Origin: a virus | Taxonomy: Duplodnaviria; Caudoviricetes | IMG/VR virus record: IMGVR_UViG_3300037264_008235 | Coordinates: 1,466 to 65,465 of that record | Strand: one strand, 5' to 3' | DNA length: 64,000 nucleotides | In this document: in pieces, positions 3,163-63,658 of the stretch | Layout: every line of letters begins with the position of its first letter | How positions within the stretch are numbered: position 1 is the stretch's first letter | Program-made: the position numbers and the translations under genes | Notes under the pieces: model-generated | What the model was told of the DNA's origin: nothing | Seen by the model: only the letters and a program-made list of their open reading frames with translations | Database searches by the model: none

Positions 3163-5118
3163 TCAAGAGTAGAGAGAGGACTGGGGCACGGCCCAGAGGA
3201 TCGGCTGCACGCCGGTCGTGGCCTCCGCCTCCCAGGCGACCTCCTGGCTGGTGATGTCTCCCGGCCCGCCGGCGAAGGGCGCCGTCGTGACCTGGAAGGA
3301 CGGGACGAAGAGCTCGATCGCGACGCTGTAGATCTGCGTGGACGCCGCCGTCCACGCGTAGAGCGTCCCGTTACCCGCGCCGCGCCCCTGGATCGTGAGG
3401 GCGACCGAGAGCGTGGTGACCGTGATCCCGCTGCCGTCCGCGGTGACCGCGACCGCGCTCCCGCCAACGGTCAGCGAGAGCTGGAAGTCATTCGCCGTGG
3501 CCGCGATCACGTAGTAGGTCGTGTTCGCGGTGAACCCGGCCGGGGGCGCCGCGAGGACCACGGCCTGCCCGTTCACCAGCCCGTGAGCCGTCTTCGTGAA
3601 CAGGTCTCCCACGTCCGTGGCGCTCACGGCCGTCAGGACGAGCTCGGCCGCGATCGCGGCGACGGTGATGACCTCCGCCTTCGCCGGCGTCCCGGACGCG
3701 CGGAGGAGGAGCGTGTCCCCGGCCATCATCCCGCCCGCCCCGCCGACGGACTGGACCCAGGTCTGGGTCCCGGTCCCGTCGCTGGTGATGTCGATCGCGG
3801 CGCCGCCCTTGGTCAGCGCGAGCTTGAACTTGTCGACCGTCCGGTCGCGAACGTAGTAGGTCAGACCCGCGATCAGCGGCGCGGGGAGCGTCGTCGTGGT
3901 CTGGACGGTGACGGCCTGGTCGTTCTGCAGCCCGTGGCTGGTCGACGTCAGGAAGTCGTCCGTCGCGAACGCCGTGGTGAACACGCCCGACCCGGCGGTC
4001 TGCCGGAGCGGGAGGAACATCGTCGTCGCGCCGGCGGCGAGGTTGTTCACGGTGCTCAGAAGCCGGCTGGTCCGGTGGAACCCGCAGACGCGGAGCCGGC
4101 CAACCGTCTGGTTCCGGATCATCGAGAGGTAGCGGGTGTTCGTCGGGTTGATCCGGAACGTCCCGCTGACCCGCTGGATCCCCGCGGCGAGACCGGTGAC
4201 CAGCGACTTCATGCGGCCGGCGTCGGTCGGGCTCCCGTCGACGTCGACCTCCCGGCCCTGCTGCTGGAGCGCCTGGTCGACCACGATCGTGAACGCGAGC
4301 GCGGAGCTCACGAGCGAGTCCGCCGGCGCCGGCGCCGTGTCGTCCCGCGCCTCGAAATAGGCGGTCAGGAACGTGAACCCCTTCGCGGCCGGGAGGACCG
4401 GAGCAGCCGGCGTCGCGGGGTTCGCGACCTCGCTGTCCTTCTGCGCGCGCCAGTCGACCGCGCAGAGGATGTCCGGGTTCCCGCCCCCCCGCTCCGCGCT
4501 GAAGGTTACCCGGCCCGCCTTCGCTCCCACGTTGAGGAGCGTCGTGTCCGTTCCCATCCCCGAGAAGTGCTTGATCGCGAACGAGTCCGTCTCGGAGTTG
4601 GTCCGGCGGAGGATCGCGTCGATCACCGGCGCCGAGTTGTCCGGGTAGAGGATCACCCGGATCGTCCCCTGTACGTTGTACTCGGTCGCGAGCCGCTCCG
4701 GCGCCTCGAGGCTCCCGACCTGGCGAACGACCTCGGTGAACGACGGCTGAGGGTAGAGCCCGAACCCGTCGTTCTCGACGCAGAGGACGATCGGGTCCGG
4801 CGTGACCGTGTTGGGCGGCGTCCCGACCGACGCCATCGCGATCGCGGTCCCGCCCTTCGTCGCCGCGACCGTGAACGTGTCCGCGTCCACGACGGAGACG
4901 ACGTAGTAGCGGGTCCCGCCCGTCAGGGCCGCGGGGAGCCCGCCGCCGGCGGTGAAGATCACGCCGCGCCCGGCCCGGAGCCCGTGCCCGACGACGACCA
5001 CGTTCGGGCTGCCGCCGCCCGTGAACGTGACCGAGATCGGGTCGAAACCGCGCCCGTCCCCGTAGAGCGACTCCTTCGTCCCGCCCATGGTGGTGAAACG
5101 TCCGAAACCGGAAGGCAT
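3163..5118 (-). CDS. Major tail (tube) protein with three inserted beta-rich modules
   Basis: Gene order; tube-like segments (VQGTIRVILYP, VSGTFRI, IELFVPSFQVT); three HGL..YYV..GG modules. Confidence 0.75.
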   Translation of the reverse strand: MPSGFGRFTTMGGTKESLYGDGRGFDPISVTFTGGGSPNVVVVGHGLRAGRGVIFTAGGGLPAALTGGTRYYVVSVVDADTFTVAATKGGTAIAMASVGTPPNTVTPDPIVLCVENDGFGLYPQPSFTEVVRQVGSLEAPERLATEYNVQGTIRVILYPDNSAPVIDAILRRTNSETDSFAIKHFSGMGTDTTLLNVGAKAGRVTFSAERGGGNPDILCAVDWRAQKDSEVANPATPAAPVLPAAKGFTFLTAYFEARDDTAPAPADSLVSSALAFTIVVDQALQQQGREVDVDGSPTDAGRMKSLVTGLAAGIQRVSGTFRINPTNTRYLSMIRNQTVGRLRVCGFHRTSRLLSTVNNLAAGATTMFLPLRQTAGSGVFTTAFATDDFLTSTSHGLQNDQAVTVQTTTTLPAPLIAGLTYYVRDRTVDKFKLALTKGGAAIDITSDGTGTQTWVQSVGGAGGMMAGDTLLLRASGTPAKAEVITVAAIAAELVLTAVSATDVGDLFTKTAHGLVNGQAVVLAAPPAGFTANTTYYVIAATANDFQLSLTVGGSAVAVTADGSGITVTTLSVALTIQGRGAGNGTLYAWTAASTQIYSVAIELFVPSFQVTTAPFAGGPGDITSQEVAWEAEATTGVQPILWAVPQSSLYS

Positions 5119-5130
5119 CTCGTCTTCCTC

Positions 5131-5613
5131 CTACGTGTTCTGCTCGAAAGTGATCTCGAGGAGGAGCTGGAACTCGGGCCAGTCGTCCTCTTTTCCCTGC
5201 GTCCCGGTATTCAGTTCCATCGACGGGATCGCCTTGATGGTGGGCGAGGGCCCAGACTCGAAACTCCGGATCGCCCGCGCGACCGCCTCCGCGTACTGGT
5301 GGAGCAGGTCGTCGCTGAAGTCGTCGAGGGAGGGCGAGATCGAGCCGACGACCAGGATCCGCATCGGGCGCCAGAGCGTCCCGCCCACGATCCCGCCCTC
5401 GGCCATCCGGCTCCCCGCGTGCCGGAGCTCGATCCGGATGTCCGGCGCCGCCTGGTCGTCCTCCGGGGTCGGCTTGTCCGTCGGCCGCCGGATCGAGAGC
5501 CCGTCCGGCCAGGCGGTCAGCCCGAACTCGTCCACGAACGCCTTGACCGGCCCGGTCGAGGAGAGGATCAGATCGACCAGCTCGTTGATGACGGTCGTCA
5601 GCGTACTAGCCAC
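5131..5613 (-). CDS. Tail terminator/completion-like protein
   Basis: 160 aa acidic protein immediately upstream of tail tube gene. Confidence 0.5.
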   Translation of the reverse strand: MASTLTTVINELVDLILSSTGPVKAFVDEFGLTAWPDGLSIRRPTDKPTPEDDQAAPDIRIELRHAGSRMAEGGIVGGTLWRPMRILVVGSISPSLDDFSDDLLHQYAEAVARAIRSFESGPSPTIKAIPSMELNTGTQGKEDDWPEFQLLLEITFEQNT

Positions 5614-6103: not shown

Positions 6104-6104
6104 G

Positions 6105-6776
6105 TCAGACCTCCGACGCGCACGTCGGCGCGCCCGTCCCAAGCTTCATCTGCGCGGACCCGTCGTCCAGGACCAGGAACGGCGCCGCCTCGCACTCCTC
6201 GATCCGCGCCTCGCCGGACTCCTCGAACTTCTTGGCCGCCTCCGCGACGCCCTTCTCCTTCTTCGCCGCGCGCGAGTAGCTGATCTGGAGCACGGCCGCG
6301 GACGCGAGCAGCTCAGCCGCGTCCCGGACTGTCGTCGGCGTCTCCGCCGCGGTCGTCCAGAGCGCGCGCTCGATCACCAGATCGCCCTCCCCTTCCGCCG
6401 TGAGGTCGATCGCGCCGCCGTTGGCGGTCGCCGCGAGCCGGATCGTGTCCTTGTCCACCGGGATCGCGTAGTAGACGGTCCCGGCGACCAGCGGCGCCGG
6501 CATGGTCACGTTCGAGCGGAGGCGGACCTTGTCGTTGAGCGCGAGCCCGTGACCGCGGACGTCCAGCTCGTCCAGGAGCGCGTCGACGTCCAGTTCCGCG
6601 TCGATCTCGAAGACGCGGCTGTAGAGCCCCGCGAGCCGCTGCCGGACGCGGGACTCCGCCTTGGTCTCCTCGACGTCCACCTCGGCCTGCGTGACCCCGT
6701 CCTGGACGGTCGCGTGGAACTTCCCCACGCTCTTGAGGTACCCGGTCGCGGCGACGAGGTCGATGAACTGGCCCAC
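6105..6776 (-). CDS. Head-tail adaptor with one inserted module
   Basis: Position after capsid genes; helical ends interrupted by HGLALND..YYAIPV..GGAIDLT module. Confidence 0.6.
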   Translation of the reverse strand: MGQFIDLVAATGYLKSVGKFHATVQDGVTQAEVDVEETKAESRVRQRLAGLYSRVFEIDAELDVDALLDELDVRGHGLALNDKVRLRSNVTMPAPLVAGTVYYAIPVDKDTIRLAATANGGAIDLTAEGEGDLVIERALWTTAAETPTTVRDAAELLASAAVLQISYSRAAKKEKGVAEAAKKFEESGEARIEECEAAPFLVLDDGSAQMKLGTGAPTCASEV

Positions 6777-7446: not shown

Positions 7447-7500
7447 CTTCTGAACTCCGTTCGTGCTCTCTCGAGCGGTTTCTTTTCTCTTTCCCGATCG

Positions 7501-7559: not shown

Positions 7560-8990
7560 CTACGGGGTGATCTGGATGTCCGGGCAGACGACGACCCCGC
7601 GGGGCTGACGCACGCCGACGTCGCAGAACATCTGCGCCTTGACGTAGGTCTGGCCCTTCGCGAAACCGACGCCCATCCCGCCGTCGTCGCTGATCCCGAT
7701 CCCGGCCCAGATGCCGAGGAGGACCTCCGACCAGTTCCCGAAGAACAGGTCGCCGAACTTGGACGCGCCGGCCGACTGCGGAGCGCCGACCGAGGCGCCC
7801 GGGACGTTCGCCCGCGGGATCTGGTTCGACGCGCCGAAGGGCCCGATCACCGACGCGAGCCCCTCGTCCGTGATGATCGGAGGGCCGGTCACGAAGGCGC
7901 GCCCGTCGCCGGCCGGCTGGGACCCGTAGGCCTCGACCTTGAGCTGCCGGAGCTGGGTGAAGGTCCGCCCCGCGCCGATGAACGCGGAGCCCGCCTCGAT
8001 GTCGACGTCGTTCTCCTCGAGCACGAGCCTCATGTCGGAGAGGACGTCGAACGTGACCGACGCCCCGTTCCAGTCCGCCTGGAACGGCGCCGACCCGAGC
8101 GCGGCCACGCCGAGCTCGCCGGAGCCGCGGGACTGCGCCGAGTAGACGTGGATCCCCTGCCCGGTCTGCCCGCCGCCGCCGCGCGTGTGCACGACGCCGC
8201 GCGGCTGCCCGCCCCCGCCGGTCCCGTAGAGGACCGCGTAGTCGAGCTTCTTCGCGATCGCCCGGGCCATGTCGGTCCGGAGGAGCGCGTCGATGCCCGG
8301 CATCGCGAGCAGCTTGAGCGCGTCGGTCATCCGGAACAGGACGCCGATCTTGTGCGGCATCAGGGAGACGTCGCCGAACTTCGCGACGCTCTCCGTGATC
8401 GCGTCCTCCTCGCCCGGCCAGTAGGCGAGCAGCCCGCCGTAGAAGCGCGGGATCTTCACCTCGGCGCCGGCCAGGTTCGGGATGACCCGGACCCGCTGCT
8501 GCCCCTCCCCAACCAGGTTGATCATCACCGACCGCGTGTAGATCGCGGGCACGATGTCGGAGAGGACCTGGATCGGGATCATGAACCCGCCGTACTTGTC
8601 GTCCCCGGCGGACTGCGCGGCCGCGCGCATGACCTCGTACTCGTGGGAGCAGTCGGCCTTGCCGTTGGTCTCGCGCTTGATGAAGTCCACGCCGTACTTC
8701 GACACGAGGAAGGCCTTGTGCAGGGAGAACGGCGCGTCTTCCATCCCCGGCAAGAAGCCGGGACCCGAGCTCCGCTTCACGAGTTTCTGGATCGCCTCCT
8801 GCTGCGCGCGGATCTTCTCCAGTTCCTCGATCGTCTTCTTCCCGTCGACGGCCCGCCCCTCCTCGAGCTTCGCGAGGCGGTCGAGCGTCTTGTCGAACGC
8901 GCCTCCCGCGCCGAGGAACCCTTCCAGCCGCGTCAGGAACTGCGCGGTCTGGACGGGATCGAGCACCGCCGATCCGTTGGTTTCGCCCAT
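7560..8990 (-). CDS. Major capsid protein, HK97 fold
   Basis: GGFMIP, AYWPGEEDAITES, FGDVSLMPHK, LDYAVLYGTG..QPRG, FFGNWS, DVGVRQP motifs. Confidence 0.93.
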   Translation of the reverse strand: MGETNGSAVLDPVQTAQFLTRLEGFLGAGGAFDKTLDRLAKLEEGRAVDGKKTIEELEKIRAQQEAIQKLVKRSSGPGFLPGMEDAPFSLHKAFLVSKYGVDFIKRETNGKADCSHEYEVMRAAAQSAGDDKYGGFMIPIQVLSDIVPAIYTRSVMINLVGEGQQRVRVIPNLAGAEVKIPRFYGGLLAYWPGEEDAITESVAKFGDVSLMPHKIGVLFRMTDALKLLAMPGIDALLRTDMARAIAKKLDYAVLYGTGGGGQPRGVVHTRGGGGQTGQGIHVYSAQSRGSGELGVAALGSAPFQADWNGASVTFDVLSDMRLVLEENDVDIEAGSAFIGAGRTFTQLRQLKVEAYGSQPAGDGRAFVTGPPIITDEGLASVIGPFGASNQIPRANVPGASVGAPQSAGASKFGDLFFGNWSEVLLGIWAGIGISDDGGMGVGFAKGQTYVKAQMFCDVGVRQPRGVVVCPDIQITP

Positions 8991-9004: not shown

Positions 9005-10285
9005 CTACTGCTTTCCCGAACCCGCCGCGGCGCTATCGAGGGCCGCGAGCCTGGACAAGAGACCCGCGACCCGGGGGTCCGGGGAAACTGATCCCCGGGC
9101 CGGCTCGCGACGCGCTTCCGTTCCCTCGACGCCGCGGGCGACCTCCGCCCGCTCGAGCAGCTCCCTCGCGTCCTCGAGCTGCTGCCCCAGACCGATCAGT
9201 CCCTCGACCACGAGCGACTCGACCCGGTCCGCCCGTTCCGCCACCAGCTTCTCGACCGCGCGGAGGAGCCCCGGGAAGTCCCGGACCTCCGGCGCCGGCG
9301 CGGGAGCCGACCCGACGACGACCACGCGGTTCCCGGAGACCGGCGCCGCCGCCGGCGCCGAGTCCTCGACGATCGGACGCCCGACATCCGTCGCCTTCTC
9401 CCACCGCTCCGCCGGCCAGAGCGTCCGCGCCATCACGAACAGGCGCAGGTCCTGCTCCGCCCACCCGTCCCGCGCGCCCGCGTCCCGGACCGCCGCGCGG
9501 CGGAGCAGCTCGCGCCAGAGGTTCACGTCCGGCGGCCGGACCCGGCCCTCGGACTTCCGCTGGGCCAGGAGCGCGTAGGCGCCCTGGTTGCACGGGATCA
9601 GGCAGGGGGAGAACTCGATCAGCTCGTTCTTCTGGAAGACGATCCCGTGCTTCCCGAGTCCGAGATGCTCACGCTCCTTCGGATCCTTGACGTGGAGCGG
9701 CTCGTGGGACCGGAACCCGACCGAGCCGCCCCGCATGAATCCGGCGCGGACCAGCCGGAGCGCCTCGTCCGCCCGTGCGGAGACGTCCGCAGGCGCGAAC
9801 ATCGAGAAGAGACGGAGCGCCGGACCCTGGTAGTCGGCCCCCTCGCGGACGATGACTTGCCAGTCGAGGTGCTTCCCGATCGGGAGCCCGCCCCAGTCGT
9901 GGGAAAGCGGCATCGCGGGGTTGCCCGCGAACCGCTCGAAGGCCCAGTCCTGACGGACGATGTCCCCTTCCCCGTCGACGCGCTCATCGCTCGCCAGGTA
10001 GGGGACCACGCGGCCCGTCTCCGGGTGGGCCCACTCGTCTTTCCAATCCTGGACGCCGCGCGCCGTCGCCAGCGCGCGGAGCTCCGCGGCGCCTGGCAGC
10101 TGGACCGGGTCCTTGAGGACGAGCGCCGACTTTCCGAGCACCGGGAACCCTTCGCCGCCGGGCCCGTCCGTCCGGAGGACGGAGCGGCCGCCGGCGCGCG
10201 CCTCCTCGACCTGGAAAGTCGCGACCGGCTCGACCGACTTGAACCCGGCGAGCAGCTCCGCGACCCGGCTCTTGATCCCGTCCAT
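9005..10285 (-). CDS. HK97-family prohead protease
   Basis: ASDERVDGEGDIVRQ, SHDW..PIGK, GGSVGF, ELIEFSPC.IPCN motifs. Confidence 0.88.
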   Translation of the reverse strand: MDGIKSRVAELLAGFKSVEPVATFQVEEARAGGRSVLRTDGPGGEGFPVLGKSALVLKDPVQLPGAAELRALATARGVQDWKDEWAHPETGRVVPYLASDERVDGEGDIVRQDWAFERFAGNPAMPLSHDWGGLPIGKHLDWQVIVREGADYQGPALRLFSMFAPADVSARADEALRLVRAGFMRGGSVGFRSHEPLHVKDPKEREHLGLGKHGIVFQKNELIEFSPCLIPCNQGAYALLAQRKSEGRVRPPDVNLWRELLRRAAVRDAGARDGWAEQDLRLFVMARTLWPAERWEKATDVGRPIVEDSAPAAAPVSGNRVVVVGSAPAPAPEVRDFPGLLRAVEKLVAERADRVESLVVEGLIGLGQQLEDARELLERAEVARGVEGTEARREPARGSVSPDPRVAGLLSRLAALDSAAAGSGKQ

Positions 10286-10307
10286 ACGCTTTCTTTCCCT
10301 CCGCCGG

Positions 10308-10886
10308 TCAGTCCGGCAGCTCCTCGAGGACCGCCTCGCCGATCACTCGCGTCCCGGCCGTGACCGCCCCGTCCGCGCAGATCGCCACGCCCCCGGCAGG
10401 CGGGATGTCCATCACGCGGGAGAGGTCCGACTCGCTGGATCCGCGCGCGAGGTCGAACTCCCTCGGCCCGGCCGGCGCGTACCCGTCTCCCGCGACGTAG
10501 CCGACGTCGGCCCCGACCAGCCGCGCGAGCGGGGACTTCGTGCTGAGGACCGCCGTCCCCGCCGCGAGCCCCTCTTTCCGCATGAGGACGTCCGAGATCG
10601 TCGCCTCCGCGTAGCGGGAGTTGAGCGACTCCGGAACGATCGCCACGGCCGCGGGCGTCCCGGTCGCCGCGAAGGCCCCGACGAAGCGCCGGAGCGCGAA
10701 GACGGAGAACGTGATCGCGGTCGTCCCGCCGAACCGGAGGAGCGCGCGGAGCCCGCGCAGCAGGACGCGCCGGTTCGTGCTCGTGTTCCGGATCGCGAGG
10801 TACGGGGTCAGGTCGTCCAGGTCCGTGGTCGGGATGAAGTCGAACGAGACCACGTAGATTCCCTTCGGCGTCCCGCGAGTCACCAT
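10308..10886 (-). CDS. Hypothetical head-module protein
   Basis: 192 aa ORF with RBS between portal and protease. Confidence 0.5.
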   Translation of the reverse strand: MVTRGTPKGIYVVSFDFIPTTDLDDLTPYLAIRNTSTNRRVLLRGLRALLRFGGTTAITFSVFALRRFVGAFAATGTPAAVAIVPESLNSRYAEATISDVLMRKEGLAAGTAVLSTKSPLARLVGADVGYVAGDGYAPAGPREFDLARGSSESDLSRVMDIPPAGGVAICADGAVTAGTRVIGEAVLEELPD

Positions 10887-10899: not shown

Positions 10900-13113
10900 T
10901 CACGTCGGCGTCGCGAAGCAGCGGCAGCCGATCACCTCTGAGGCCGGCGCGCGCGGGTCTCCCGGGTACTCCAGGACCCCGCCGCCCCCGACCAGTTCCA
11001 TGAAGTTGAAGCCCAGGTCGACCTCGCCCGCGTCTCCGTAGATCCGGTGCGTGTCCCGGACGGCCTCGTCTCCGGCCGTCCCCCACTCGTGCTTGACGAA
11101 ACCCTGGATCCGGAACAGCTCGTCCCGCGCCCCGTTGACGAACCCGGTCGCCTCCGTCCGCGCGACCGAAAGGGACTTGGAGCTCGAGGACGCGAGCGAG
11201 AACTCCCGCGCCAGCCGGGCCCGGAGCTGGGGAACCGTCTCCCCCTGACGCTGCCCCTCGTCCATCGCGGACCGGAGCCGGCGCTCGAGGTTGGCCGGAA
11301 CCGTGTCCAGGAGTCGGCGCTCCCGGAACTCGAAGAAGCGCGTCAGGCGCGGGTCGTCGACCTCGACCGTCTGCGTCCCGATCTCCCCGGAGACGAAGTC
11401 GAACGTCTCGACCAGCGCGGCGCCATAGACCGGCCGCGCGTACGTCTTCAGGCGCGCCCGGAGGGCGGCCAGCGGCGGGAGCGCGACGCGCGGGTCGAGC
11501 GCGCGCGTCACCTTGTCGAAGGCCCGGAGGACCTCCTCCTGAGCCTCCGCCACCCACTTCCGGTAGGCGCGCCGCATCCGCGCCTCGACGGGCGAGTGGA
11601 GCGACAGGTACTCTCCCCAGGTCCTCCGCCGCGCCCGCCGCCGGGCGACCGTCGCCGGCGCCGGCGCGTCGTCCTCCTCCTCGACCGGAGGCTCGTCCTC
11701 GACCGACTCCGGAGGCTCGAGCGCGACGTCGGTCGGGACGAGACCCTGCCCGACGAGCGCGACGTCGTCTCCCGGGTAGCGGTTGACGTCGACGCCCGCG
11801 AAGTCGTAGGCGACCCGCGGCGGCGCGCGGAGCGGCTCCTCCGCCAGCTTCCGCGCGAGGTCGATCTTCTCCGAGACGCCGACCCGGAGCGCCTCGACGT
11901 TGGTCAGGTCGAACGCGCCGAAGAGGCGGTCCGTCTCGAACCCGAAGAGCGGGGAGAACTCGAGCGTCGTTTCCAGACGCTTGAGCAGCGGGAGGACCGT
12001 GTTCTCCCAGAAGATCTTGAGCTGGGCCATCGCCGTCGCGTAGTTGACGACGTCCGTGACCCCGAGCAGGCTGGGCGGGACCCCGAGGACGGCGAGGATC
12101 TCCTCCCGGTCCCAGCGCCGCGTATTCAGGTGTTCCATGTCCCGCGGCGAGAGCCCGACCTGGTGGTACTTGATCCCGCCGATGAGAACCCCGACTCGGC
12201 CGGCGTTCTCCGGTCCCCGGTGCCGGTTCTCCCACCGCTGGCGGAGCGTATCCGGATCGACCCCGACTCCCTCGTACTCGAGGATGCCCTCCGGGACCGC
12301 GCGGTTCGACAACATCCGGTCCTCGTGCGTCCGGAGCTTGAGGTCCGTCGTGACCGCCTCGGCAGCCGCGCTGATCTTTGATTTCCCGCGCGTCGGGTCG
12401 GCCGGGTTCGGCAGCTTGAACTGCACGACCTCCTCGAGATCGAGGAACGTCTCGACCCGCCGCTCCGCGCCGGGCAGGTAGGGCGGGAACCGGAGACGCC
12501 AACCGCCCAGCTCGCCGCGCTTCCCGCCGCCGACGTGGACGGGCTCGAGACTCTCTGGGCCGAGCGGCCAGACCCGCTCCGGGATCTCGCCGACACGCGG
12601 CCCGCCGCCGATCTCTCCCCAGTCGAGGACCCAGAACACCTCGCCGCAAACGACCAGCCAGAGGAAGGTCAGCGCCCAGAGGTCGTCCCCGTGCTGGTAC
12701 GGGTTCGGGTTGCTGAGCAGGACCGCGACCGGGTGGTCGTCGATCGCCTGGGCGGACGTGGCGCGGAGGAGCGTCGCCCGCGCGTGGAGTCGCGCGATCG
12801 CGGCGCGCTTCCTCCCGGCGCGCGGCTGCGGGCCTGGCTCGCGCGGGTCCTCCGCGTAGACGCGGAAGGGCGCGTTCATCGCGGCGGTCGCGATCGCCTG
12901 CGCGCCCGCGAACACCCACGCGTGGTTCGAGTAGGGATCCCGCGCCTTGAGCTCGGGCGGGAGCGCGGCGCCGGCGGCGCCTCCGAACAGCCCGCCGAAC
13001 CAGTCGTCCAGGAGCGACCCGAACCACTTCAGGCGATTGCCGCCCTCGCCGGCGCGCCGGCGACCCTTTCCGGCTCCGCCGTTCTGGCGGTGCCCGTTCT
13101 TCTCGAGGATCAC
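10900..13113 (-). CDS. Portal protein fused to Mu gpF-like head morphogenesis domain
   Basis: Portal motifs (LLSNPNPYQ, EVVQFKLPNP, GVPPSLLG, NYAT); C-terminal ARTEAT, KHEW..GDEAVRDTH, YPGDP..EVIGCRC. Confidence 0.9.
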   Translation of the reverse strand: MILEKNGHRQNGGAGKGRRRAGEGGNRLKWFGSLLDDWFGGLFGGAAGAALPPELKARDPYSNHAWVFAGAQAIATAAMNAPFRVYAEDPREPGPQPRAGRKRAAIARLHARATLLRATSAQAIDDHPVAVLLSNPNPYQHGDDLWALTFLWLVVCGEVFWVLDWGEIGGGPRVGEIPERVWPLGPESLEPVHVGGGKRGELGGWRLRFPPYLPGAERRVETFLDLEEVVQFKLPNPADPTRGKSKISAAAEAVTTDLKLRTHEDRMLSNRAVPEGILEYEGVGVDPDTLRQRWENRHRGPENAGRVGVLIGGIKYHQVGLSPRDMEHLNTRRWDREEILAVLGVPPSLLGVTDVVNYATAMAQLKIFWENTVLPLLKRLETTLEFSPLFGFETDRLFGAFDLTNVEALRVGVSEKIDLARKLAEEPLRAPPRVAYDFAGVDVNRYPGDDVALVGQGLVPTDVALEPPESVEDEPPVEEEDDAPAPATVARRRARRRTWGEYLSLHSPVEARMRRAYRKWVAEAQEEVLRAFDKVTRALDPRVALPPLAALRARLKTYARPVYGAALVETFDFVSGEIGTQTVEVDDPRLTRFFEFRERRLLDTVPANLERRLRSAMDEGQRQGETVPQLRARLAREFSLASSSSKSLSVARTEATGFVNGARDELFRIQGFVKHEWGTAGDEAVRDTHRIYGDAGEVDLGFNFMELVGGGGVLEYPGDPRAPASEVIGCRCFATPT

Positions 13114-30481: not shown

Positions 30482-30723
30482 AGCGGCGCGCCGCCCGCGC
30501 GCCTCCGGGACCTCCGCCAGCCGCCGCCTCTTCCCGCCCGCCGCGCCGGCTATTATAAGAGGAAGCGGTTCAAGAGGAAGGGTCCGCGGCGTCCCAAGCG
30601 GAGCACGCGCGTAAGTGTAGAGGTGGCGGATTGATAACGCTCAGGCGTTTTTCTTTTCCGTTTTCCGGTAACGCGCGGCCGGCTTCAGGGTATAACACCT
30701 ACGTAAAGAAAGGACGGTGACCG
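30482..30723. promoter_or_regulatory. Divergent promoter region
   Basis: Strand switch; minus TATAAT 30552-30557; AAGAGGAAG direct repeat; plus GTAACG-17-TATAAC at 30668-30696. Confidence 0.6.
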
Positions 30724-44565: not shown

Positions 44566-44622
44566 TTTTCCCGTAACGGGAACCTGCCGTGGCGGTATAA
44601 TACCCGCGTAAAGAAAGGACGG
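44566..44622 (+). promoter_or_regulatory. Phage promoter plus RBS homologous to 30661-30717
   Basis: TTTTCC.GTAACG-17bp-TATAAT-ACC..CGTAAAGAAAGGACGG. Confidence 0.7.
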
Positions 44623-44628
44623 CGAAAC

Positions 44629-55986: not shown

Positions 55987-55988
55987 GG

Positions 55989-56378
55989 TCAGAAGTCCCC
56001 GCCGTGGACGAAGACGTTGAAGGTCTCCGCGTTGTGGGTCGAAGCCCGGAGCGAGTAGCCAGTCGGGAGTACCAGCGGCTCGGTCGGGACGAACTCGGTT
56101 GAGAAGGCAGCGACCGTCGTCGAGGGCGTGGTCGCCGCGACGAGCAGTTCTTTCCAGAGCCGCGCGTTGGTGCCGTTGTGGATGAAGAGCCGGACGACCC
56201 CGTCCGTCGTCGTCCCGGTCGCCTGGACGCGGACGTACTCGATCCGCCCGCCGTCGGAGCCCGGCGTGTAGATGGTCGCGATCGTGCCGGTCCCGTCCCG
56301 GTCCGGATTCGCGACTGAGACCTGGCCGACCGCGGCCACGGGCGTCAGGGTGAAGATCGGGGTCGTGTTAGGGGGCAT
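55989..56378 (-). CDS. Tail-associated beta-sandwich protein
   Basis: ATG at 56378: MPPNTTPIF...GVVRLF...LVLPTGYSLRA...GGDF. Confidence 0.55.
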   Translation of the reverse strand: MPPNTTPIFTLTPVAAVGQVSVANPDRDGTGTIATIYTPGSDGGRIEYVRVQATGTTTDGVVRLFIHNGTNARLWKELLVAATTPSTTVAAFSTEFVPTEPLVLPTGYSLRASTHNAETFNVFVHGGDF

Positions 56379-59300
56379 CAGACGAACCTTTCCATGGAGA
56401 GGAGCCTCGTGGTCGGGGTGAGCGCGGCGACGCGCCCGAGGAGGGACGCGGGATTGCTCGCGGCGATCTCCTCCCGAAGCATGGTCTGCGTCCGGTCCGG
56501 GTCGAGCGTGATGAGCGGGAAGTCCGGATGGAGCCCCTCGCCCGAGTCGATCGCGGGGTAGAGGCCCACCGCGTTGGCGATCATCCAACCGACGACCGGG
56601 TGGAAGAAGACCGCGCCGAGGTTCCCGGTGACCAGGTTCTCGGGGTAGCCGACGCCGTTCCCGAGGCTCGCGCCGTTGATGCTGACCGTGTTCGCTGGGA
56701 TGCCCAGGGGCGCGTAGGCGTCCGACGGCGTGGGCCAGTCGAGCGGGTCGATCGGCCCCCCGTGGATGCCCGGGTCCGCGAGGTACTGGAGCCAGGTCAG
56801 GTGCGTCGCGGGGTTGAAGCTGGGCGGCCAGAGGCGGTTGCCGGGGCCGCGGGTGAGGTCCCCGATGATCGCCCGGGGCCAATAGATGCACCCGGTAAGC
56901 TCGGTGTAGGACCCCTGCGCGAGAGGATCAGTGTTCCCGCTGATGTTGTCCGGGAAGACGGGTTGCTGCGGGTGCCGCCCGGTGAAGTTGGAGCCGTCAC
57001 CGCTCAGGGGTGTCGCGGTGCCGTCCCTGGTCGTCGAGACCTTGAACTCCGTCGAGGAAAACCCGTCGGCGATGACGTAGTACTTCGCCCCGCTGGTGAT
57101 CCCGCCAGGGATGGAACCGCTTCCGTCCGTGAATCGGACCGGCTCGCCGACGACGAGACCGTGCGCCCCGCCTCCGTCCTTGGTGAAAACCTCGGTGTCT
57201 GCCTCAGCGTCCAGCGTGATCGTGCCAGTTGCTGGCCGAATCGTGTTCGACTCCGGGTCGAGTTCGCCGCGGAGCTTGACCGCCTGCTTCTTGTTCCGCA
57301 GGAACTCAGCGACGTAGGGGTCCGGTGCGGGGCGTTCCTCGTCCCAGCGGACGATCGCCATGATCGAAGGGTGGCCCTGGATGTCGTAGGTGACAGCCGA
57401 CACCCGAGCATCCACCCCCAGGACCACGTCTTCGAGCGCCTCGACGTCGATGATCGGCACGTCGGCGGTCGGCCCAGATCCCTCGTTGAGATTACTCAGA
57501 GCCGACTCGGCGGAGTCGGCAGGGGCGTCCGGACCCTTCTCCGCGTCCTGCTTGCCTTGGACCGCTTCGAGCTTGCTCCAGAGCGCTGCGAGGCCGGAGC
57601 CGATCGCCGATAGACCGTTCTGGACCTTGTTGTTGAGCGCGTCGATTTGCGCCTGCAACCCGCTTGGATCGAACTGGGTGGCGTTCTGGCTGCGTCCACC
57701 GAACGCCCCTCCACCATTCGGCCCGTTGAGCCCCCCGCCGAGCGCCCCGCCGCCGCCGACCGCGCCGCCGACCGCGCGCGCGCCCGCGAGGCACCGCTCG
57801 CGGTCGTTCATCTTCTTCACGACGCGCTCGAGCGCGGCCGCCTTCTGCCGCTGCCGGACGTCCGCCACCGCGCGGTCGAACGCGCCGCCCGTCCCGCTCC
57901 GGTCCGTGGACAGAGTCACGGACGTCTGGTTGGCGGCGAAGTCGTAGACCTCCCGCGTGTGCTGGGCGCGCTCGACGATCACCTTCCCGCCCGAGTGGAG
58001 GTCCACGCACGCCTGGACGCACGGCTCGGCCGCGTAGGCGGGCGCCGGCAACGGCGGCGGCGCGGTCAGGAAGACCAGCCAGTCGAAGCGGAGCCCGCGC
58101 AGGACCAGCTCGCCCGCGTAGCGGACGTCCTTGTACTGCTCGAGGATCTCCTTCGCGTGGTTGCGCGCGGACGCCACGAACTCCGGGTGCTTGAATCCCT
58201 GCGGGTTCGCCGGAGTGGCCGGATCGCCCCGCTCCATCGACTCCTCGTTGATCGCGTCCAGGTAGACGAGGAGCTCGCGCTCGATCCCGAGCCGGCTGTA
58301 GGCGGTCGAGGTCGCCTGGCCCGCGTACCCGAGGTGGACCTCCGCGGAGACGGAGACGGACGGGCTGGAGACGGTCAGGTTGACCGGGTTCCCGCCGCGC
58401 GCGAGCGCGATCTTGAACGCGGTCGCCGTGAAGCCGGAGCTCGCGACGTAGTAGCGGCTGCCCAGCGTCACGCCACCTGGGACGCTCCCGTAGAGCCGGA
58501 CCGGCTGGCCCGCGAACAGTCCGTGGGCGCCGCCCCCGACCTTGACGAACGTGTCGGTCGACGCCAGCGCCGCGGCCGAGAACTCGACGTTCTCCGGGAA
58601 GCGGACGGAGAGCGTCCCGCCCGTCTTCGTGCAGAAGCGGAGCTCCTGGACGGGGTTCACGATCGCGGAGCCCGGCGTCGCGCAGCTCGCCCCGACGTAG
58701 GCGGGCGAGAGCAGCGAGACCAGGTCGAGCGTGACGTTCTGGCCCCCGACGATCCGCGTCTCCCGCACGACGTCCCAGTCGGCCGGGATCATCTGCGCGG
58801 TCGGCGAGCCGCTCGGCCCGAGGAGCTGCTGGACGAGGTAGGCCGCGTCGCAGCACGAGTCGAAGACGTGGGAGAGGGAGACCGGCGGGTACTTCCACGG
58901 CGCCGCCGGGGAGACCGGCGGCAGCGACGTGTCGACCACGAGGTAGGTCCGGAACACGTCCACCGCGGAGCCCCCGGCCGCGGGCGGCCGCGCGGTCACG
59001 GTGATCCGGTGAAGATTCCGGACCTGGAGCGCGGCCCAGCCGGTCGGCCCGCCGCCGTTGATGACGGCCGGCGGCGCCGGCGTGCCCGCCGCCAGGTTGA
59101 GCGTGTCCCGGAAGCTGGTCGCGACGTCCGCCTCCCAGACGGTCGGCGGGCCGACGATCGGGGGGGTCTTGAAGACGTTGAACTCGACCTTCACGCGCCC
59201 GCCGCTCCACCAGAGCGGCTGCCAGGCGAGGGAGCCGATCTGGATGAACGGCTGGTTCGGCCCGCCGCCGTTGACCGAAGTCCCCGTCCAGGTCGAGACC

Positions 59301-60658
59301 GGCGCCTGCGTGCAGGACCAGTACTGCTCGAGGTTCCGGTCCCAGGCGCGGACGATCGCGTAGCGGCGGTCGGCGAAGGCCGGGTCGTTCGGGTGCGGCG
59401 GGACGTAGGTCGAGATCTCCGCGACGAAGCGGGCGACCGCCGGCTCCGTCTCGTCCCGCCGCCCGACCAGCCGGCAGGCGGTGTAGAGCTGGCCGGAGGA
59501 CTCCTTGAACCCGTGCCGGAGGACCTGCTGCTGGTCGTCCACGTCCACGCGGAAGCGGTTCGGGAACCCGGACGCGAGCCCGTTCTCGCTGAGCTGGTCG
59601 AACGGGTCGATCTGGACCCGCATCTCGTCCACGAACGGGGCGTCGAACGTGTGCTGCCAGAGCTGCATCGTCGGGCTCACGCTCTTCACGAGCACGACGA
59701 CCGCTTCCTTGAACGGCCCGTCGAAGACGAGCTTGCCCGGCCGCGGCGCGCGGCCCGCGTACCAGTCGGTCGAGATCCGGAAGCTGGCCGGGAACAGGTC
59801 GTGCGTCCCGCCGGCCACGTAGAACGGGCCGAGGATCGGCGTCAGCTCGTAGAGGTGGCTGAGCTCGAGGTCCTCCCCGATCGCGACCACGTCCGCGCGG
59901 TGGTCCGCGAGCGCCCGCTCGTCGAAGTCCGGGTCGTCCGGGTCCGGGTTGTAGACGCGCCGCGGGAACAGGCGGTTCGGGTCCGGGTTCGGCTCGAGGC
60001 GCGGGTTGTTCGTCACCTGGAAGTTGAGGTCGTCGAACAGGCTCCGGCAGAGGTACTCGACCGCCCTCCCGTCCGAGGTCCGGTTGATCTCCGCGATCCG
60101 GCCGGAGAACAGCGGCTGCCGGAAGTCGCTGGTAACGGTGAACCCGGCGGTCCCGTCCGAGGTCAGGTCGAGGACGGCGCCGCCGCGCGTCTCCGAGATC
60201 TGGAACGTGGTCGCGGTCGCGGCGACGACGTAGTAGGCGCGGAGCGGCTCGATCCCGCCCGGGAGCGCGCCGGCCGCGGCGCGGAACACGACCGGCTCGC
60301 CGACGATGAACGCGTGGGCGACGGCCGGCGGGACGAGCGTCGTCGTGACGAGGTTCCCCGTCGCCGAGCCGGAACATGAGTAGGACGGCGGAAGCTCGCC
60401 CCGCGCGTGGAGCACGCGCGAGTACTCGGAATGGTAGTACGCGACGCGGCGCCCGTAGGCGAAGCTGGCCCGGTCGAACGGGACGTGCTCCCGGAAGACG
60501 AGGAGGTCCCCCTCATTCCGGTTCTTCTCGCACCGGACCATCGAGATCTCGCCGTTGAGCCCGTCGTCCCCGAAGAGGTCGACGACCCGGTCGGCGTCCG
60601 GGCCGGCCGGGGAGGAGATCGACGGCGTGACCCCGACGCGCAGCCGGTGACCGCTCAC
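56378..60658 (-). CDS. Large tail tip / hub protein with three inserted modules
   Basis: 1426 aa; LFSGRI..INR..VEY.C hub-like motif; coiled coil; position after TMP. Confidence 0.6.
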   Translation of the reverse strand: MSGHRLRVGVTPSISSPAGPDADRVVDLFGDDGLNGEISMVRCEKNRNEGDLLVFREHVPFDRASFAYGRRVAYYHSEYSRVLHARGELPPSYSCSGSATGNLVTTTLVPPAVAHAFIVGEPVVFRAAAGALPGGIEPLRAYYVVAATATTFQISETRGGAVLDLTSDGTAGFTVTSDFRQPLFSGRIAEINRTSDGRAVEYLCRSLFDDLNFQVTNNPRLEPNPDPNRLFPRRVYNPDPDDPDFDERALADHRADVVAIGEDLELSHLYELTPILGPFYVAGGTHDLFPASFRISTDWYAGRAPRPGKLVFDGPFKEAVVVLVKSVSPTMQLWQHTFDAPFVDEMRVQIDPFDQLSENGLASGFPNRFRVDVDDQQQVLRHGFKESSGQLYTACRLVGRRDETEPAVARFVAEISTYVPPHPNDPAFADRRYAIVRAWDRNLEQYWSCTQAPVSTWTGTSVNGGGPNQPFIQIGSLAWQPLWWSGGRVKVEFNVFKTPPIVGPPTVWEADVATSFRDTLNLAAGTPAPPAVINGGGPTGWAALQVRNLHRITVTARPPAAGGSAVDVFRTYLVVDTSLPPVSPAAPWKYPPVSLSHVFDSCCDAAYLVQQLLGPSGSPTAQMIPADWDVVRETRIVGGQNVTLDLVSLLSPAYVGASCATPGSAIVNPVQELRFCTKTGGTLSVRFPENVEFSAAALASTDTFVKVGGGAHGLFAGQPVRLYGSVPGGVTLGSRYYVASSGFTATAFKIALARGGNPVNLTVSSPSVSVSAEVHLGYAGQATSTAYSRLGIERELLVYLDAINEESMERGDPATPANPQGFKHPEFVASARNHAKEILEQYKDVRYAGELVLRGLRFDWLVFLTAPPPLPAPAYAAEPCVQACVDLHSGGKVIVERAQHTREVYDFAANQTSVTLSTDRSGTGGAFDRAVADVRQRQKAAALERVVKKMNDRERCLAGARAVGGAVGGGGALGGGLNGPNGGGAFGGRSQNATQFDPSGLQAQIDALNNKVQNGLSAIGSGLAALWSKLEAVQGKQDAEKGPDAPADSAESALSNLNEGSGPTADVPIIDVEALEDVVLGVDARVSAVTYDIQGHPSIMAIVRWDEERPAPDPYVAEFLRNKKQAVKLRGELDPESNTIRPATGTITLDAEADTEVFTKDGGGAHGLVVGEPVRFTDGSGSIPGGITSGAKYYVIADGFSSTEFKVSTTRDGTATPLSGDGSNFTGRHPQQPVFPDNISGNTDPLAQGSYTELTGCIYWPRAIIGDLTRGPGNRLWPPSFNPATHLTWLQYLADPGIHGGPIDPLDWPTPSDAYAPLGIPANTVSINGASLGNGVGYPENLVTGNLGAVFFHPVVGWMIANAVGLYPAIDSGEGLHPDFPLITLDPDRTQTMLREEIAASNPASLLGRVAALTPTTRLLSMERFV

Positions 60659-61965
60659 GGGTTCGGCCCTCCGGTATCGGCGCCCGCCGCGGCCGCGGCG
60701 GGGACGATCCCGAGCGGGCCGGCGGAGTCGGCGGCCGCCTCCGCGGCGTCGGGCCGGATCGAGGTCGGCCAGGACTCAGCGACCGCGGCGGCCGGGAGCG
60801 CCGGCGTGATTCCCTTGGGACGGAAAGTCACGATGCCGGCGGGGACCAGGAACTGCGGGGGGAGGATCAGCCACCCGCGCCGCCGGTTCCGGAGGTACTG
60901 CTCGATCAGGAAGTACCACTGCCAGTTGATCTGGACGAGCGGCTCGGTCGTCGTCTCCGCCGGCTGGACGAGCGACGGCTCGGTCAGCTCGACCGTGATC
61001 CGTTCCCAGATATCCGGGTCGAACACGCCGCGGGTCCGCTCGTCCTCGTTCAGTTTCACGAGAGAGAAGGCCCACTCGCCCTGCCCGTGCCGGCGCCGGT
61101 AGGCCCAGACCGGACTCGCGGGGGGGAGCAGCTCGAAATAGTCGAACTCCCGCCGGAACGGGCGCGCGTAGGAGGCGAACCCGTTGGCGGTCATGGTCGC
61201 GGGCGCGACCTCCCACCAGGGATCGGTCGGCGTCGAGACGAGCGCGACGGCGCTCAGAGCGAACGCCGCGTCCATCACGAGCACCGGATCCGGGGGGTTC
61301 GCTTCGAGTCCGGGGACCGGCGCGCCGTAGTGGAGCTGCACGAGAAGAGTGTGCGTCCCACTGCCCTGGGACGTAAGGTCCACGATCGGGAAGCAGATCA
61401 TCCCCGTCGCGTCTCCGGTCAGGTCGAACTCCGACCCGCCGAGAGTCGCGGAAAGCGTGAAGTTGTCCGCGTCCACGACGACCCGGACGTAGTAGGTCGT
61501 CCCCGCCGTGATCCCGGAGGCGCCGACGCTGCGGAATACTACAGGCTGGTCGACCGCGAGTCCGTGCGCGACCTTGGTGATCCGGTTGTTGGAGGCGGTC
61601 GCCACGACCCCGGCGAGCGCGGTCGGGAACGTGGATACCTTGAAGGTGTCGGCGTCCTTGTCCTGGACGAAGTACTGCGTGCCCTTGGCGGTCCCTCCGG
61701 GAAGCGTCCCGAGGAGGTTCCGGAGCTGGACCGCCTGACCGTCTGCGAGCCCGTGCGCCGCTTCCGTGATCGCGTTCGTGGTCGCGTTCACGTCCGCGGC
61801 GGGGAACGTCTTGGTCGTGACCAAAAAACCCTCGAAGGCCACGGCGACGCGCTCCCAGAGCTGGGGAGGGAAGAACGGTCGCGTGGCGGCGTCCTCCGTC
61901 AGCAGTTTCGTGGTGAGTGCCCACGGGTTCGCGCTGCACTCGCGGTTCCGGTAGACGTAGAGCAC
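60655..61965 (-). CDS. Minor tail protein with two nested modules
   Basis: Position; module inside module. Confidence 0.55.
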   Translation of the reverse strand: MLYVYRNRECSANPWALTTKLLTEDAATRPFFPPQLWERVAVAFEGFLVTTKTFPAADVNATTNAITEAAHGLADGQAVQLRNLLGTLPGGTAKGTQYFVQDKDADTFKVSTFPTALAGVVATASNNRITKVAHGLAVDQPVVFRSVGASGITAGTTYYVRVVVDADNFTLSATLGGSEFDLTGDATGMICFPIVDLTSQGSGTHTLLVQLHYGAPVPGLEANPPDPVLVMDAAFALSAVALVSTPTDPWWEVAPATMTANGFASYARPFRREFDYFELLPPASPVWAYRRRHGQGEWAFSLVKLNEDERTRGVFDPDIWERITVELTEPSLVQPAETTTEPLVQINWQWYFLIEQYLRNRRRGWLILPPQFLVPAGIVTFRPKGITPALPAAAVAESWPTSIRPDAAEAAADSAGPLGIVPAAAAAGADTGGPNP

Positions 61966-61966
61966 G

Positions 61967-63658
61967 CTACGGCCACCTCGCGCTCTTGAAGAGGTCCCCG
62001 GCGCCGCCCGGCTCCCCGATCCCGCCCGCCTCGATCCTCACCCATCGCCTCGTCCCGGAGCCGGTCGAGGTCACGTCGACCGCGCCGCCGCCCAGCGTCG
62101 TCGAGACCTTGAACGTGTTCGCGCGCCCGAGCTTCATCGTCCCGGTCCCGGTCGTTGTCAGGTCGATCTCAGTCCCGGGGCCGGCGACCGCGGAGAGCTT
62201 GACGGTGTTCCCGTCGACGACGATCACGTAGTAGTCGACCCCCTCGAGGAGCGGCGCCGGGAGATACATGCCGTAGAGCCGGACCGCTTCTCCGGACGAG
62301 AACCCGTGAGACGCGATCGCGATCGTGTTCGCGCCGGCGTTCACGTTCGCGTCCGTGAACGTCTTGCTCGTCAGGACTACGTAGTAGGCGCCCTTCGCGT
62401 TCAGGCCCCCCGGCATCGCCGCGCCCGGGTCCGCCCAGAGGACGACGCGGTCGTCGTTGACGAGCCCGTGGCCGGAGGACGTGAGCGTGTCGTCCGTCTC
62501 CGCCGTGAAGATCCCGGTCGTCGTCCCGAACGGGACCAGCCGGGAGAGGTTCTGGATCAGCGGCCGCTTCCGCCCGAGGAAGTTGTAGTTGAGCGTCGCG
62601 AGGCGCCCCGTCTGCTCGTTGATCTCCGCCGTGATCCGCTGGAAGGCGACCTCCCGGTAGAGCCCGACGAACCCGCGCACGTGGAGCCCGGCCGTGTAGG
62701 AGACCGGCTGGCCGGCGATGATCTGCGGCGGCCTCCGGACCGGCTCCTGGAGGACCACGACCCGCCAGTCCCCGTTGCCGGCGACGGTCTCCCGGATCTC
62801 CTCGATCTTGACCAGCTCGCACCCGACGTCGATCCCGCCCGCGTCCTCCCCGTCCCCGCCCGGGTGGTCCTGGAGGTCGAACTTCCCGACGGAGAGCACC
62901 ATCCCCGGGCGGAACCCGACCGACCAAGCGTCGAAGAGGAGCGTTAGGACGTCGGTCCCCCAGTTGACGTTGAGGATGATCGCGTTCTCGAGCGTCGGTT
63001 TCGGGTACTCCCCGTCCCCGTCCGGGACCGAGTAGGGGTTCGGCGTGGCCGTCTTCACGACCTGGCCGTCCCAGAAGACGATCACGTCGCACAGGTAGGC
63101 CTCGGTCCCGAGCCGGAAATCCTGGAGATACCGCTCCGGCCGGTTCGGCGCGGAGAACTCGGGGCTGTTCCCCTTCCCGACCTGGACGAGCGTCGGGTCG
63201 TAGAACCGGAACGCCTCGTGGAGGTCCCTGGTCTGGTCGGAAAGGAACTCGTCCAGGACGAGCGGGCTGGCGAACGCGACGCCGTGCCGGAACGAGTGCT
63301 GGAACGTGAAGTTTCCGGAGCTGCCGTCGATCGCCGGCGCGAGCCCGCGGCTGACCGGGTCGACCGATAGCGCGCCGCGCTCGATCGACGTCGTCTTGAC
63401 CTGGTAGGAGCTGCCCGAGAGCGGGACGGTCGTCCGCCACTTCCCGATCGGGAACGCGCGGTGCCAGGGCGCCGTCGGGAGGACCACGATCCCGATGGTA
63501 CCTTCCGTGACCTCCGCCTCCGGCCAGTTGGTCGGCCGGTCGAGCTGCGGCTGCGGCCACTTCCCGCGAGGGTCGTCCGCGGCCTCCGCGGGCGACCGCT
63601 TGAAGTCGTAGATCAGCAGCCAGGCGGCCGTCGCGCCGAACACCGCGGTGGAGGCCAT
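61967..63658 (-). CDS. Distal/minor tail protein with two nested modules
   Basis: First gene after the probable TMP end; module inside module near C-terminus. Confidence 0.55.
   Translation of the reverse strand: MASTAVFGATAAWLLIYDFKRSPAEAADDPRGKWPQPQLDRPTNWPEAEVTEGTIGIVVLPTAPWHRAFPIGKWRTTVPLSGSSYQVKTTSIERGALSVDPVSRGLAPAIDGSSGNFTFQHSFRHGVAFASPLVLDEFLSDQTRDLHEAFRFYDPTLVQVGKGNSPEFSAPNRPERYLQDFRLGTEAYLCDVIVFWDGQVVKTATPNPYSVPDGDGEYPKPTLENAIILNVNWGTDVLTLLFDAWSVGFRPGMVLSVGKFDLQDHPGGDGEDAGGIDVGCELVKIEEIRETVAGNGDWRVVVLQEPVRRPPQIIAGQPVSYTAGLHVRGFVGLYREVAFQRITAEINEQTGRLATLNYNFLGRKRPLIQNLSRLVPFGTTTGIFTAETDDTLTSSGHGLVNDDRVVLWADPGAAMPGGLNAKGAYYVVLTSKTFTDANVNAGANTIAIASHGFSSGEAVRLYGMYLPAPLLEGVDYYVIVVDGNTVKLSAVAGPGTEIDLTTTGTGTMKLGRANTFKVSTTLGGGAVDVTSTGSGTRRWVRIEAGGIGEPGGAGDLFKSARWP

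Follow-up and report, generated by a model that had tools for sequence, protein, structure and literature searches.

Eleven in-frame copies of a predicted beta-barrel module in five virion genes of a tailed phage contig

We analysed a 64,000-nt window, bases 1466-65465, of the 65,465-b virus contig IMGVR_UViG_3300037264_008235 from IMG/VR (Duplodnaviria; Caudoviricetes), which is classed as linear and has a G+C content of about 71%. Five minus-strand virion genes in this window carry 11 copies of a module of about 78 residues with the consensus H-G-L…V…LP.GL…YYV…F..S.T.GG…T..G.G. A sequence-only reading of the same DNA had claimed 11 copies across five virion genes, and all of them were recovered where it had placed them, on the minus strand. 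The host genes, and a second accessory domain that two of the copies interrupt, are as follows; the Dit position is assigned by synteny with L006, a related locus discussed below.

3163..5118, minus strand: P0001, tail tube gene, 651 aa, with a Phage_tube_2-type core, three modules and an accessory domain; stands before the chaperone and tape-measure genes
3319..4041, minus strand: tube accessory domain (AAGATTM...GDTLLL...EVITV...LTIQGRG), which hosts tubeB and tubeC
6105..6776, minus strand: P0002, 223 aa, between the capsid and tube genes
56378..60658, minus strand: P0003, 1426 aa, third gene after the tape measure, at the tail-tip position (labelled by position alone)
60655..61965, minus strand: P0004, 436 aa, second gene after the tape measure, with a nested module pair in its N-terminal region
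61967..63658, minus strand: P0005, 563 aa, first gene after the tape measure (Dit position), with a C-terminal nested pair

The module copies lie at the positions below. The independent E-values (i-E) given here come from the external hidden Markov model (HMM) described in the following paragraphs.

4795..5034, minus strand: tubeA, P0001 residues 31-108, about 27 residues from the N-terminus (i-E 1.7e-17)
3745..3984, minus strand: tubeB, P0001 residues 380-457, in the first loop of the accessory domain (i-E 8.4e-25)
3394..3633, minus strand: tubeC, P0001 residues 497-571, in a later loop of the accessory domain (i-E 2.1e-23)
6360..6599, minus strand: module in P0002, residues 61-138 (i-E 4.4e-22)
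60125..60364, minus strand: tipA, P0003 residues 98-178 (i-E 5.8e-17)
58334..58573, minus strand: tipB, P0003 residues 695-774 (i-E 5.8e-12)
56972..57211, minus strand: tipC, P0003 residues 1149-1226 (i-E 7.6e-15)
61345..61797, minus strand: P0004 outer module, residues 57-112 and about 195-207, split after strand 5 by the inner copy
61384..61611, minus strand: P0004 inner module, residues 119-194 (i-E 3.1e-22)
62039..62512, minus strand: P0005 outer module, residues 383-432 and 513-540, interrupted by the inner copy in the strand-4/strand-5 loop
62120..62353, minus strand: P0005 inner module, residues 436-513 (i-E 1.3e-20)

Nine of the copies are contiguous and form an 80-column alignment in which identity to the first copy is 29-36% and the residues H, V, YY and G are invariant. 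A seed HMM was built from these nine, with the two split outer copies left out. It recovers both of them, each as a split match flanking a complete inner copy: in P0004 at HMM positions 3-57 (i-E 1.4e-16) with a weak C-terminal part at positions 64-76 (i-E 15), and in P0005 at positions 3-50 (i-E 1e-9) and 50-77 (i-E 2e-6). Because the outer copies match in two parts around the inner copy, the doubled copies are nested rather than tandem, a feature that the sequence-only reading had missed. Thus P0004 and P0005 each contain a module within a module.

An external HMM, made from 284 copies taken only from the proteins of other organisms, was searched against the 843 six-frame open reading frames (ORFs) of at least 30 aa. 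It matches exactly five of them, the five module genes. Domain i-E values range from 8e-25 to 4e-7, except for the 13-residue C-terminal part of the P0004 outer copy. The N-terminal part of that copy matches at positions 2-57 (i-E 2.3e-17), and its C-terminal part, IVDLTSQGSGTHT, matches weakly (i-E 0.82); the two parts of the P0005 outer copy match at positions 3-48 (i-E 1.2e-7) and 47-70 (i-E 3.9e-7). This test is only partly independent, since the 284 copies were themselves gathered with a window-derived profile. A search of the whole 65,465-b contig returned 12 matches, which are the same 11 copies, and no further copy was found in the 1,465 b outside the window. The alignment and HMM, proposed as a check in the sequence-only reading, support the homology of all 11 copies, two of them as nested outer copies.

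The tube gene is identified transitively. P0001 itself has no Pfam match, and its membership of PF18906 Phage_tube_2 runs through a homologue, P0139. The P0001 core matches P0139 at E 4e-6 in the core search described below and at 1e-10 by BLASTP, and P0139 matches PF18906 at 3.7e-14 (53 bits; cutoff 27). Moreover, the Atlas places another orthologue, P0136, with Phage_tube_2 clusters (feature score 0.96-0.97, structural TM 0.64/0.85). Together with gene order, these results show that P0001 is a Phage_tube_2-type tube protein, as its earlier label of tail tube had it. Apart from the module, Pfam and PHROGs yield nothing for P0002 to P0005. P0003 has no Pfam family at E<=1, and an Atlas search with residues 1-380 of P0005 gave scores below 0.9, which are leads only. 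From its gene position alone, P0002 may have a neck or connector role. The earlier labels of head-tail adaptor for P0002 and tail tip protein for P0003 are likewise positional.

Do relatives of these proteins carry the module at the same sites? A search of 1.84 billion representatives, with the module-free part of the tube as query (P0001 residues 106-378, the core), matched seven proteins at E<=1e-3. Two of the seven, P0138 and P0141, are long tandem-repeat proteins in which short stretches of the query were matched repeatedly, and they were set aside as spurious; P0138 (851 aa, with tandem units of about 48 residues) reached 1.5e-31 through 15 short stretches against query residues 14-60, which we take to be a repeat artefact. 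The tube orthologues are P0136 (421 aa, 39% identity, 7e-47), P0137 (575 aa, 37%, 1e-43), P0140 (431 aa) and P0139 (350 aa). Occupancy of the three tube sites is as follows.

P0001 (this phage): module at site A, at site B and at site C
P0136: sites A, B and C empty
P0137: site A empty, two tandem modules at site B, site C empty
P0139: no module at site A, B or C
P0140: no module at site A, B or C

The accessory domain is uninterrupted in P0136 (AAGATTM...GDILVF...VEAVRV...FTIQGRA) and contiguous in P0140 as well. The intact domain in P0136 bears out the earlier claim that two tube copies interrupt another accessory domain. Residues 266-302 of P0136 match PF23140 Gp80 weakly, at E 0.0077 and under the cutoff. 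The two copies in P0137 are closest to tubeB (44%) and tubeC (48%), and the pair may represent related copies whose sites have shifted. When the two distant proteins that lack modules serve as outgroups, gain of modules appears more parsimonious.

The contig encoding P0136, L006, is syntenic with the window through the tail genes and extends the comparison beyond the tube. Residues 92-372 of P0005 match the gene that immediately follows the tape measure in L006; this orthologue (370 aa) stops approximately where the nested pair starts. In the L006 orthologue of P0003, about 4 residues stand in place of the 80 residues of tipA: P0003 residues 1-101 and 182-293 match L006 18117-18755, in two L006 stretches that lie 12 nt apart. 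The empty-site result therefore holds for the three tube sites (A, B and C), for the P0005 pair and for site A of P0003 (tipA). Empty alleles had been named beforehand as the check on the plug-in idea, and each of these sites is unoccupied in relatives. The module is thus present or absent at the same site in orthologues, as dispensable decoration domains are, and its earlier description as an in-frame plug-in domain stands, in the sense of a discrete in-frame insertion whose orthologues have empty sites.

A single module was detected in the 18.8 kb covered by L006, in an unrelated 410-aa gene (811-2043) in the upstream head-gene region; the L006 head genes show no similarity to those of the window at E<=1e-3. 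L006 also has a methyltransferase-like gene (9617-10777; PHROG 21658, 2.6e-27) between its tube and chaperone genes. The 90% clusters of P0002, P0003 and P0004 hold one further member each, of identical length. No relatives were found when the major capsid protein (MCP), P0136 and P0137 were used as queries against viral contigs, or when genome contigs were searched with the tube alignment. In a tblastn search with the MCP, identity to cultured phages did not exceed 25% over most of the protein, and thus the phage has no close cultured relative.

What is the module? One copy, tubeB, was modelled with AlphaFold2 from a 38-row alignment (nine window copies, one L006 copy and 28 whole small proteins). 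The model has six beta strands, a predicted local distance difference test score (pLDDT) of 90.8 and a predicted template-modelling score (pTM) of 0.81, and it confidently predicts a six-stranded beta-barrel domain. The nested insertion points map to the gap between strands 4 and 5 and to a point past strand 5 of this model, both of which are loops. In a Foldseek search of the PDB, the top matches are chains of Uba1 (probability 0.96-0.98; query-normalised TM score, TMq, 0.54-0.65), with the match putatively on the FCCH region. The same search returned the phi92 and K1F endosialidases (TMq 0.48-0.53, E 0.22 or higher). A profile comparison with residues 198-256 of the phi92 endosialidase (PDB 4hiz_A) gave E 0.23, with a shared motif of the H-G-L-x-V-G-D-x-V type. 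Against BFVD, 32 of the 514 matches at E<=10 reach E<=0.001, with TMq up to 0.89, and include tail fibre, baseplate wedge and tailspike proteins as well as many unnamed ones.

Among protein families, PHROGs 4711, 7765 and 9370 match the module at 1e-10 to 1e-15; PHROG 9370 carries the label 'tail fiber protein'. P0004 scores 11.9 bits (E 0.25) against PF16190 E1_FCCH and 13.7 bits against PF12195 End_beta_barrel. Of the 120 listed proteins with the module, 5 have a precomputed match to the Pfam E1_FCCH model, and therefore the module family and E1_FCCH touch. Altogether, the module appears to belong to a large family without a dedicated Pfam model.

This family extends well beyond the window. 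Of 8,000 scored candidates, 122 proteins match the module profile at E<=1e-3, and copy mapping of these matches reveals arrays in which a single protein has as many as 13 modules. Split matches in P0006, P0008, P0020 and P0078 suggest that nesting occurs there too. Pfam scans of ten carriers gave the following domain arrangements.

P0108: module N-terminal to a Phage_tail_2 tube domain
P0098 and P0106: module inside SU10 major capsid proteins (SU10_MCP)
P0084: module with a gp6-like connector domain (Phage_connect_1)
P0089: module between tail Collar and Gp10_C domains
P0042: bacterial flagellin, 1757 aa, with standard N- and C-terminal helical regions and seven modules in the central region

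The module family is thus widespread and promiscuous across unrelated virion protein families (tube, connector, capsid and fibre), and its presence in the flagellin P0042 means that the domain is not confined to phages. Among cultured phages, tblastn with one copy found 14 records, from Microbacterium, Rhizobium and Sinorhizobium phages, and the four genomes checked carry 1, 2, 1 and 1 copies. Two of the carrier genes encode 245 aa: L007 5611-6348 in Rhizobium phage RHph_N28_2, annotated 'putative tail protein', and L008 2599-3336 in Sinorhizobium phage phiLM21 (gp56), annotated 'tail fiber protein'. Both genes occupy the tube position, flanked by the tail terminator on one side and by the chaperone and tape-measure genes on the other, and therefore the 'fiber' label is probably wrong.

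We think it likely that the module is an outward-facing decoration or adhesion beta-barrel, gained by in-frame insertion in five virion proteins. Its family would be a large one of surface domains in phages and flagellins, for the most part unnamed and distantly related to E1 FCCH and to the endosialidase beta-barrel. We propose that it entered in frame at termini and surface loops of the neck-position protein, the tube protein and the products of the three genes after the tape measure, and that two further copies were inserted into loops of an existing copy. The loop insertions imply that the ends of the barrel lie near each other, as they would in a closed barrel, and therefore that the module could be spliced into a loop with the host fold unbroken. 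By analogy with solved FCCH-bearing tubes, the modules would project outward from neck, tube and tip. Their function may be weak, low-affinity, multivalent adhesion, probably to glycans, as the binding site in the K1F barrel and the Ig-like domains of other phages would suggest. A tail is about 1.5 Å long per tape-measure residue and a tube ring is about 4 nm high; for a tape measure of 1,406 or more residues, we estimate that the tail has about fifty rings and several hundred to about a thousand tube modules. At three per tube subunit, several hundred modules lining the tail would make it likelier that the particle remains on a cell or matrix surface. Their origin would lie in ordinary recombination, illegitimate or homologous, and in domain shuffling, with long divergence afterwards and no active mobile element.

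Several results weigh against this proposal. In L006, the neighbour at the position of P0004 has no significant similarity to P0004, and no homologues of the C-terminal flank of P0002 were found beyond its own cluster. A full-length model of P0001, made from a 5-row alignment, had a pLDDT of 46.4 and was discarded, so that outward orientation in this phage is argued from analogy. In the PDB search every E-value was at least 0.08, and none of the 162 matches reached E<=0.001. None of the nine contiguous copies matches PF16190 E1_FCCH at E<=10 (gathering score 29.5 bits), and two of the nine match PF12195 End_beta_barrel weakly, the best at E 0.0052 and 17.1 bits (gathering score 35). The label 'E1 FCCH-like' from the sequence-only reading is a fair description of the fold, whose nearest solved relatives appear to be E1 FCCH and the endosialidase beta-barrel, but the window copies fall below the Pfam E1_FCCH threshold. 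Finally, deep-mutational data for K1F call the beta-barrel 'largely permissive', so that even there its role is modulatory (PMC12632334).

Could the modules instead be structural cement, bridging adjacent subunits or rings of neck, tube and tip and binding nothing external? Particles can gain stability from accessory domains on their tubes and capsids, the assembly proteins that carry the module span each level of the tail, and elsewhere it is inserted in major capsid proteins. However, the orthologous tube, Dit-position and tip proteins without modules show that the modules are dispensable for assembly in relatives, and the variable regions of flagellins and fibre proteins carry the module too. 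We regard a purely bridging role as unlikely.

How did one genome come to carry 11 copies? One answer is that a single founder multiplied within it through duplication and transposition-like spread. The numbers invite this idea, with 11 copies here against 1, 2, 1 and 1 in the cultured carriers and one in the 18.8 kb of L006, and the nesting suggests repeated local insertion. Moreover, tipB and tipC share indels and are sisters in a FastTree of 295 copies (support 0.745; a weak tree from 80 columns). However, they are the only window pair in that tree, in which the other nine window copies do not pair with one another; the sisters of the P0002 copy and of tubeA are foreign, namely a copy in P0093 (0.97) and a copy in P0014 (0.95). 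Identity among the window copies is 19-42%, with a mean of 33.6% over 55 pairs, and equals the mean of 32.3% between window copies and the 284 foreign copies (3,124 pairs). Each window copy has a closer relative outside (best match 44-57%) than inside the genome (34-42%), in a comparison of 284 outside with 10 inside copies in which the larger foreign pool biases the maximum. At the DNA level, repeats between copies reach only 61-82% identity over at most 85 nt and are centred on the YYV and F-K-x-S motifs. The earlier claim that the domain spreads within one genome is thus not supported: in-genome identity is no higher than foreign identity, tipB and tipC are the only sisters, and DNA-level repeats and flanking signatures are lacking. 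A recent intragenomic burst is, in our judgement, improbable.

A more radical reading, which we consider a long shot, is that the module family as a whole was or is a self-propagating coding cassette aimed at the surface loops of virion proteins, its own loops included: an in-frame 'domain parasite'. The present copies would then be ancient insertions that have ameliorated and lost their DNA signatures through decay.

The notion of a selfish in-frame mobile cassette that is actively inserting into coding loops can be compared with Rickettsia palindromic elements, which are near-identical palindromic DNA repeats inserted in frame in many unrelated genes. In-frame insertion is common to both, as is the diversity of sites: here the insertions are always in frame, they hit many unrelated sites and protein families including the module itself, and their occupancy differs among orthologues. 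However, the copies here are 19-42% identical proteins without a DNA-level signature. The G+C and GC3 (third-position G+C) of module codons equal those of the host genes. No flanking direct repeats beyond a same-gene null were found: the longest are 6-9 nt in 10 of the 11 copies (for the 9-nt repeat at tubeA, the probability of 9 nt or more is 0.063), and an 11-nt repeat at the P0005 inner copy does not flank the module. Near-identical module DNA copies, long DNA repeats and template/variable repeat pairs were not found in the window, and the copies lack the near-identical DNA, defined ends or target-site duplications that would mark a mobile element. The window, whose replication half is unannotated, yielded no associated recombinase. 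An active cassette of this kind seems to us very improbable. Lastly, a chance or compositional artefact of a 71% G+C genome, in which many long spurious ORFs and sequence rich in Ala, Gly, Thr and Val are expected, is refuted by the confident fold prediction and by the specificity of the HMM without window sequence, whose only matches (5 of 843 ORFs, i-E down to 8e-25) are real virion genes.

We therefore return to outward-facing decoration and ask how it compares with known systems. The closest are the FCCH domains of the tube proteins gp39 (NBD2) and gp13 (MED16), of family PF08813, which face the exterior (PMC13576161). As described there, they are small six-stranded beta-barrels at the N-terminus of the tube protein, a position that tubeA shares, and are present in some and absent from other members of one tube family (PMC13576161). 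The present case differs in several respects. The tube family is Phage_tube_2 instead of PF08813. Each tube subunit bears three modules, two of which interrupt another accessory domain, and eight more copies, two nested ones among them, are spread over four other virion genes. The window copies also stay below the PF16190 threshold. The endosialidases of K1F (endoNF) and phi92 (PF12195; PDB 4hiz and 3gvk) also have a beta-barrel inserted in a virion protein, and in K1F it holds a polysialic-acid binding site (PMC12632334). The similarity of the module to this barrel is below threshold (profile E 0.23, fold E at least 0.22, 17 bits against 35 in Pfam), and a catalytic propeller partner is absent here.

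Ig-like domains (BIG2, FN3 and I-set) decorate capsid, tube and fibre proteins of tailed phages and underlie a model of mucus adherence; the Ig-like decoration domains of tailed phages were reportedly described by Fraser et al. in J Mol Biol in 2006. Like the module, they are promiscuous accessory domains found on many structural proteins and dispensable in homologues, and weak carbohydrate binding has been proposed for them. The fold of the module differs from theirs, and, to our knowledge, neither such a copy number per genome nor self-nesting has been described for Ig-like domains. Our limited search found no published description of multi-gene or nested occurrence of the module domain, though one may exist. 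Already known are FCCH-type domains of variable presence on tail tubes, and promiscuous phage decoration domains. What is unusual here is the presence of 11 copies in five genes, compared with 1-2 in the four cultured carriers checked, together with insertion in a second accessory domain, self-nesting at two different loops and matched empty alleles in relatives.

Why does this matter? The genome is a natural experiment in domain insertion, in which a barrel has been tolerated at a terminus, in the loops of an accessory domain and in two of its own loops. For protein engineers, it marks permissive insertion points in the tube, the Dit-position protein and the tip protein, with phage display on tails as one possible use. 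The module family recurs in tube, connector, capsid, fibre and flagellin proteins, although none of the window copies attains a Pfam threshold, and it is sometimes annotated as 'tail fiber'. Finally, if the modules bind glycans, a tail lined by hundreds of them would be an extreme case of adhesion by decoration.

In the gene-order annotation of the window, the minus-strand virion genes stand in siphophage order. The remaining genes of this block are as follows.

13705-15996, minus strand: large terminase
10900-13113, minus strand: portal fused to a Mu-F-like domain (PF04860, 2.7e-50)
between the portal and capsid genes in order, minus strand: protease- or scaffold-like gene
7560-8990, minus strand: HK97-type capsid protein (PF05065, 2.8e-28)
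after the capsid gene, minus strand: four small genes, including 6105-6776
2714-3121, minus strand: chaperone-like gene, after the tube gene
3-2414, minus strand: tape-measure gene, running off the contig start; at least 1,293 codons (L001 1-3879)
63658-63999, minus strand: 5'-open ORF of 113 codons, stopping exactly at the start of the Dit-position gene 61967-63658

At the other end of the window, the order is the 5'-open ORF 63658-63999, then 61967-63658, 60655-61965 and 56378-60658. In L006, the orthologue of 61967-63658 begins 4 nt past the stop of the tape measure. ORF 63658-63999 is therefore most likely the C-terminus of the tape measure, and both contig ends would lie inside one gene. 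The genome may be nearly complete and circularly permuted, and the CheckV completeness estimate of 76% for the contig too low. No sequence overlap was found between the two tape-measure pieces at the contig ends.

Four further features lie outside the module genes. A 73-nt motif is duplicated at 30661-30733 and 44566-44638 (73% identity), each copy with a TATAAT-like box and a AAAGAAAGGA stretch immediately ahead of GTG; the pair look like a duplicated promoter or leader region of two plus-strand gene blocks. A nucleoside 2-deoxyribosyltransferase-like gene (16010-16564; PHROG 355, 8e-18) adjoins the terminase, and 22392-23927 encodes a ParB-like or methyltransferase-like protein of 511 aa; these two genes may point to functions in DNA modification. 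Within the minus-strand gene 53008-54492, positions 53294-53938 hold six units of 63 nt (21 codons), most of them arranged head to tail, whose identity to the reference copy is 62-87%. The 494-aa protein that contains them has no PHROG match and is possibly a repetitive fibre-like protein.

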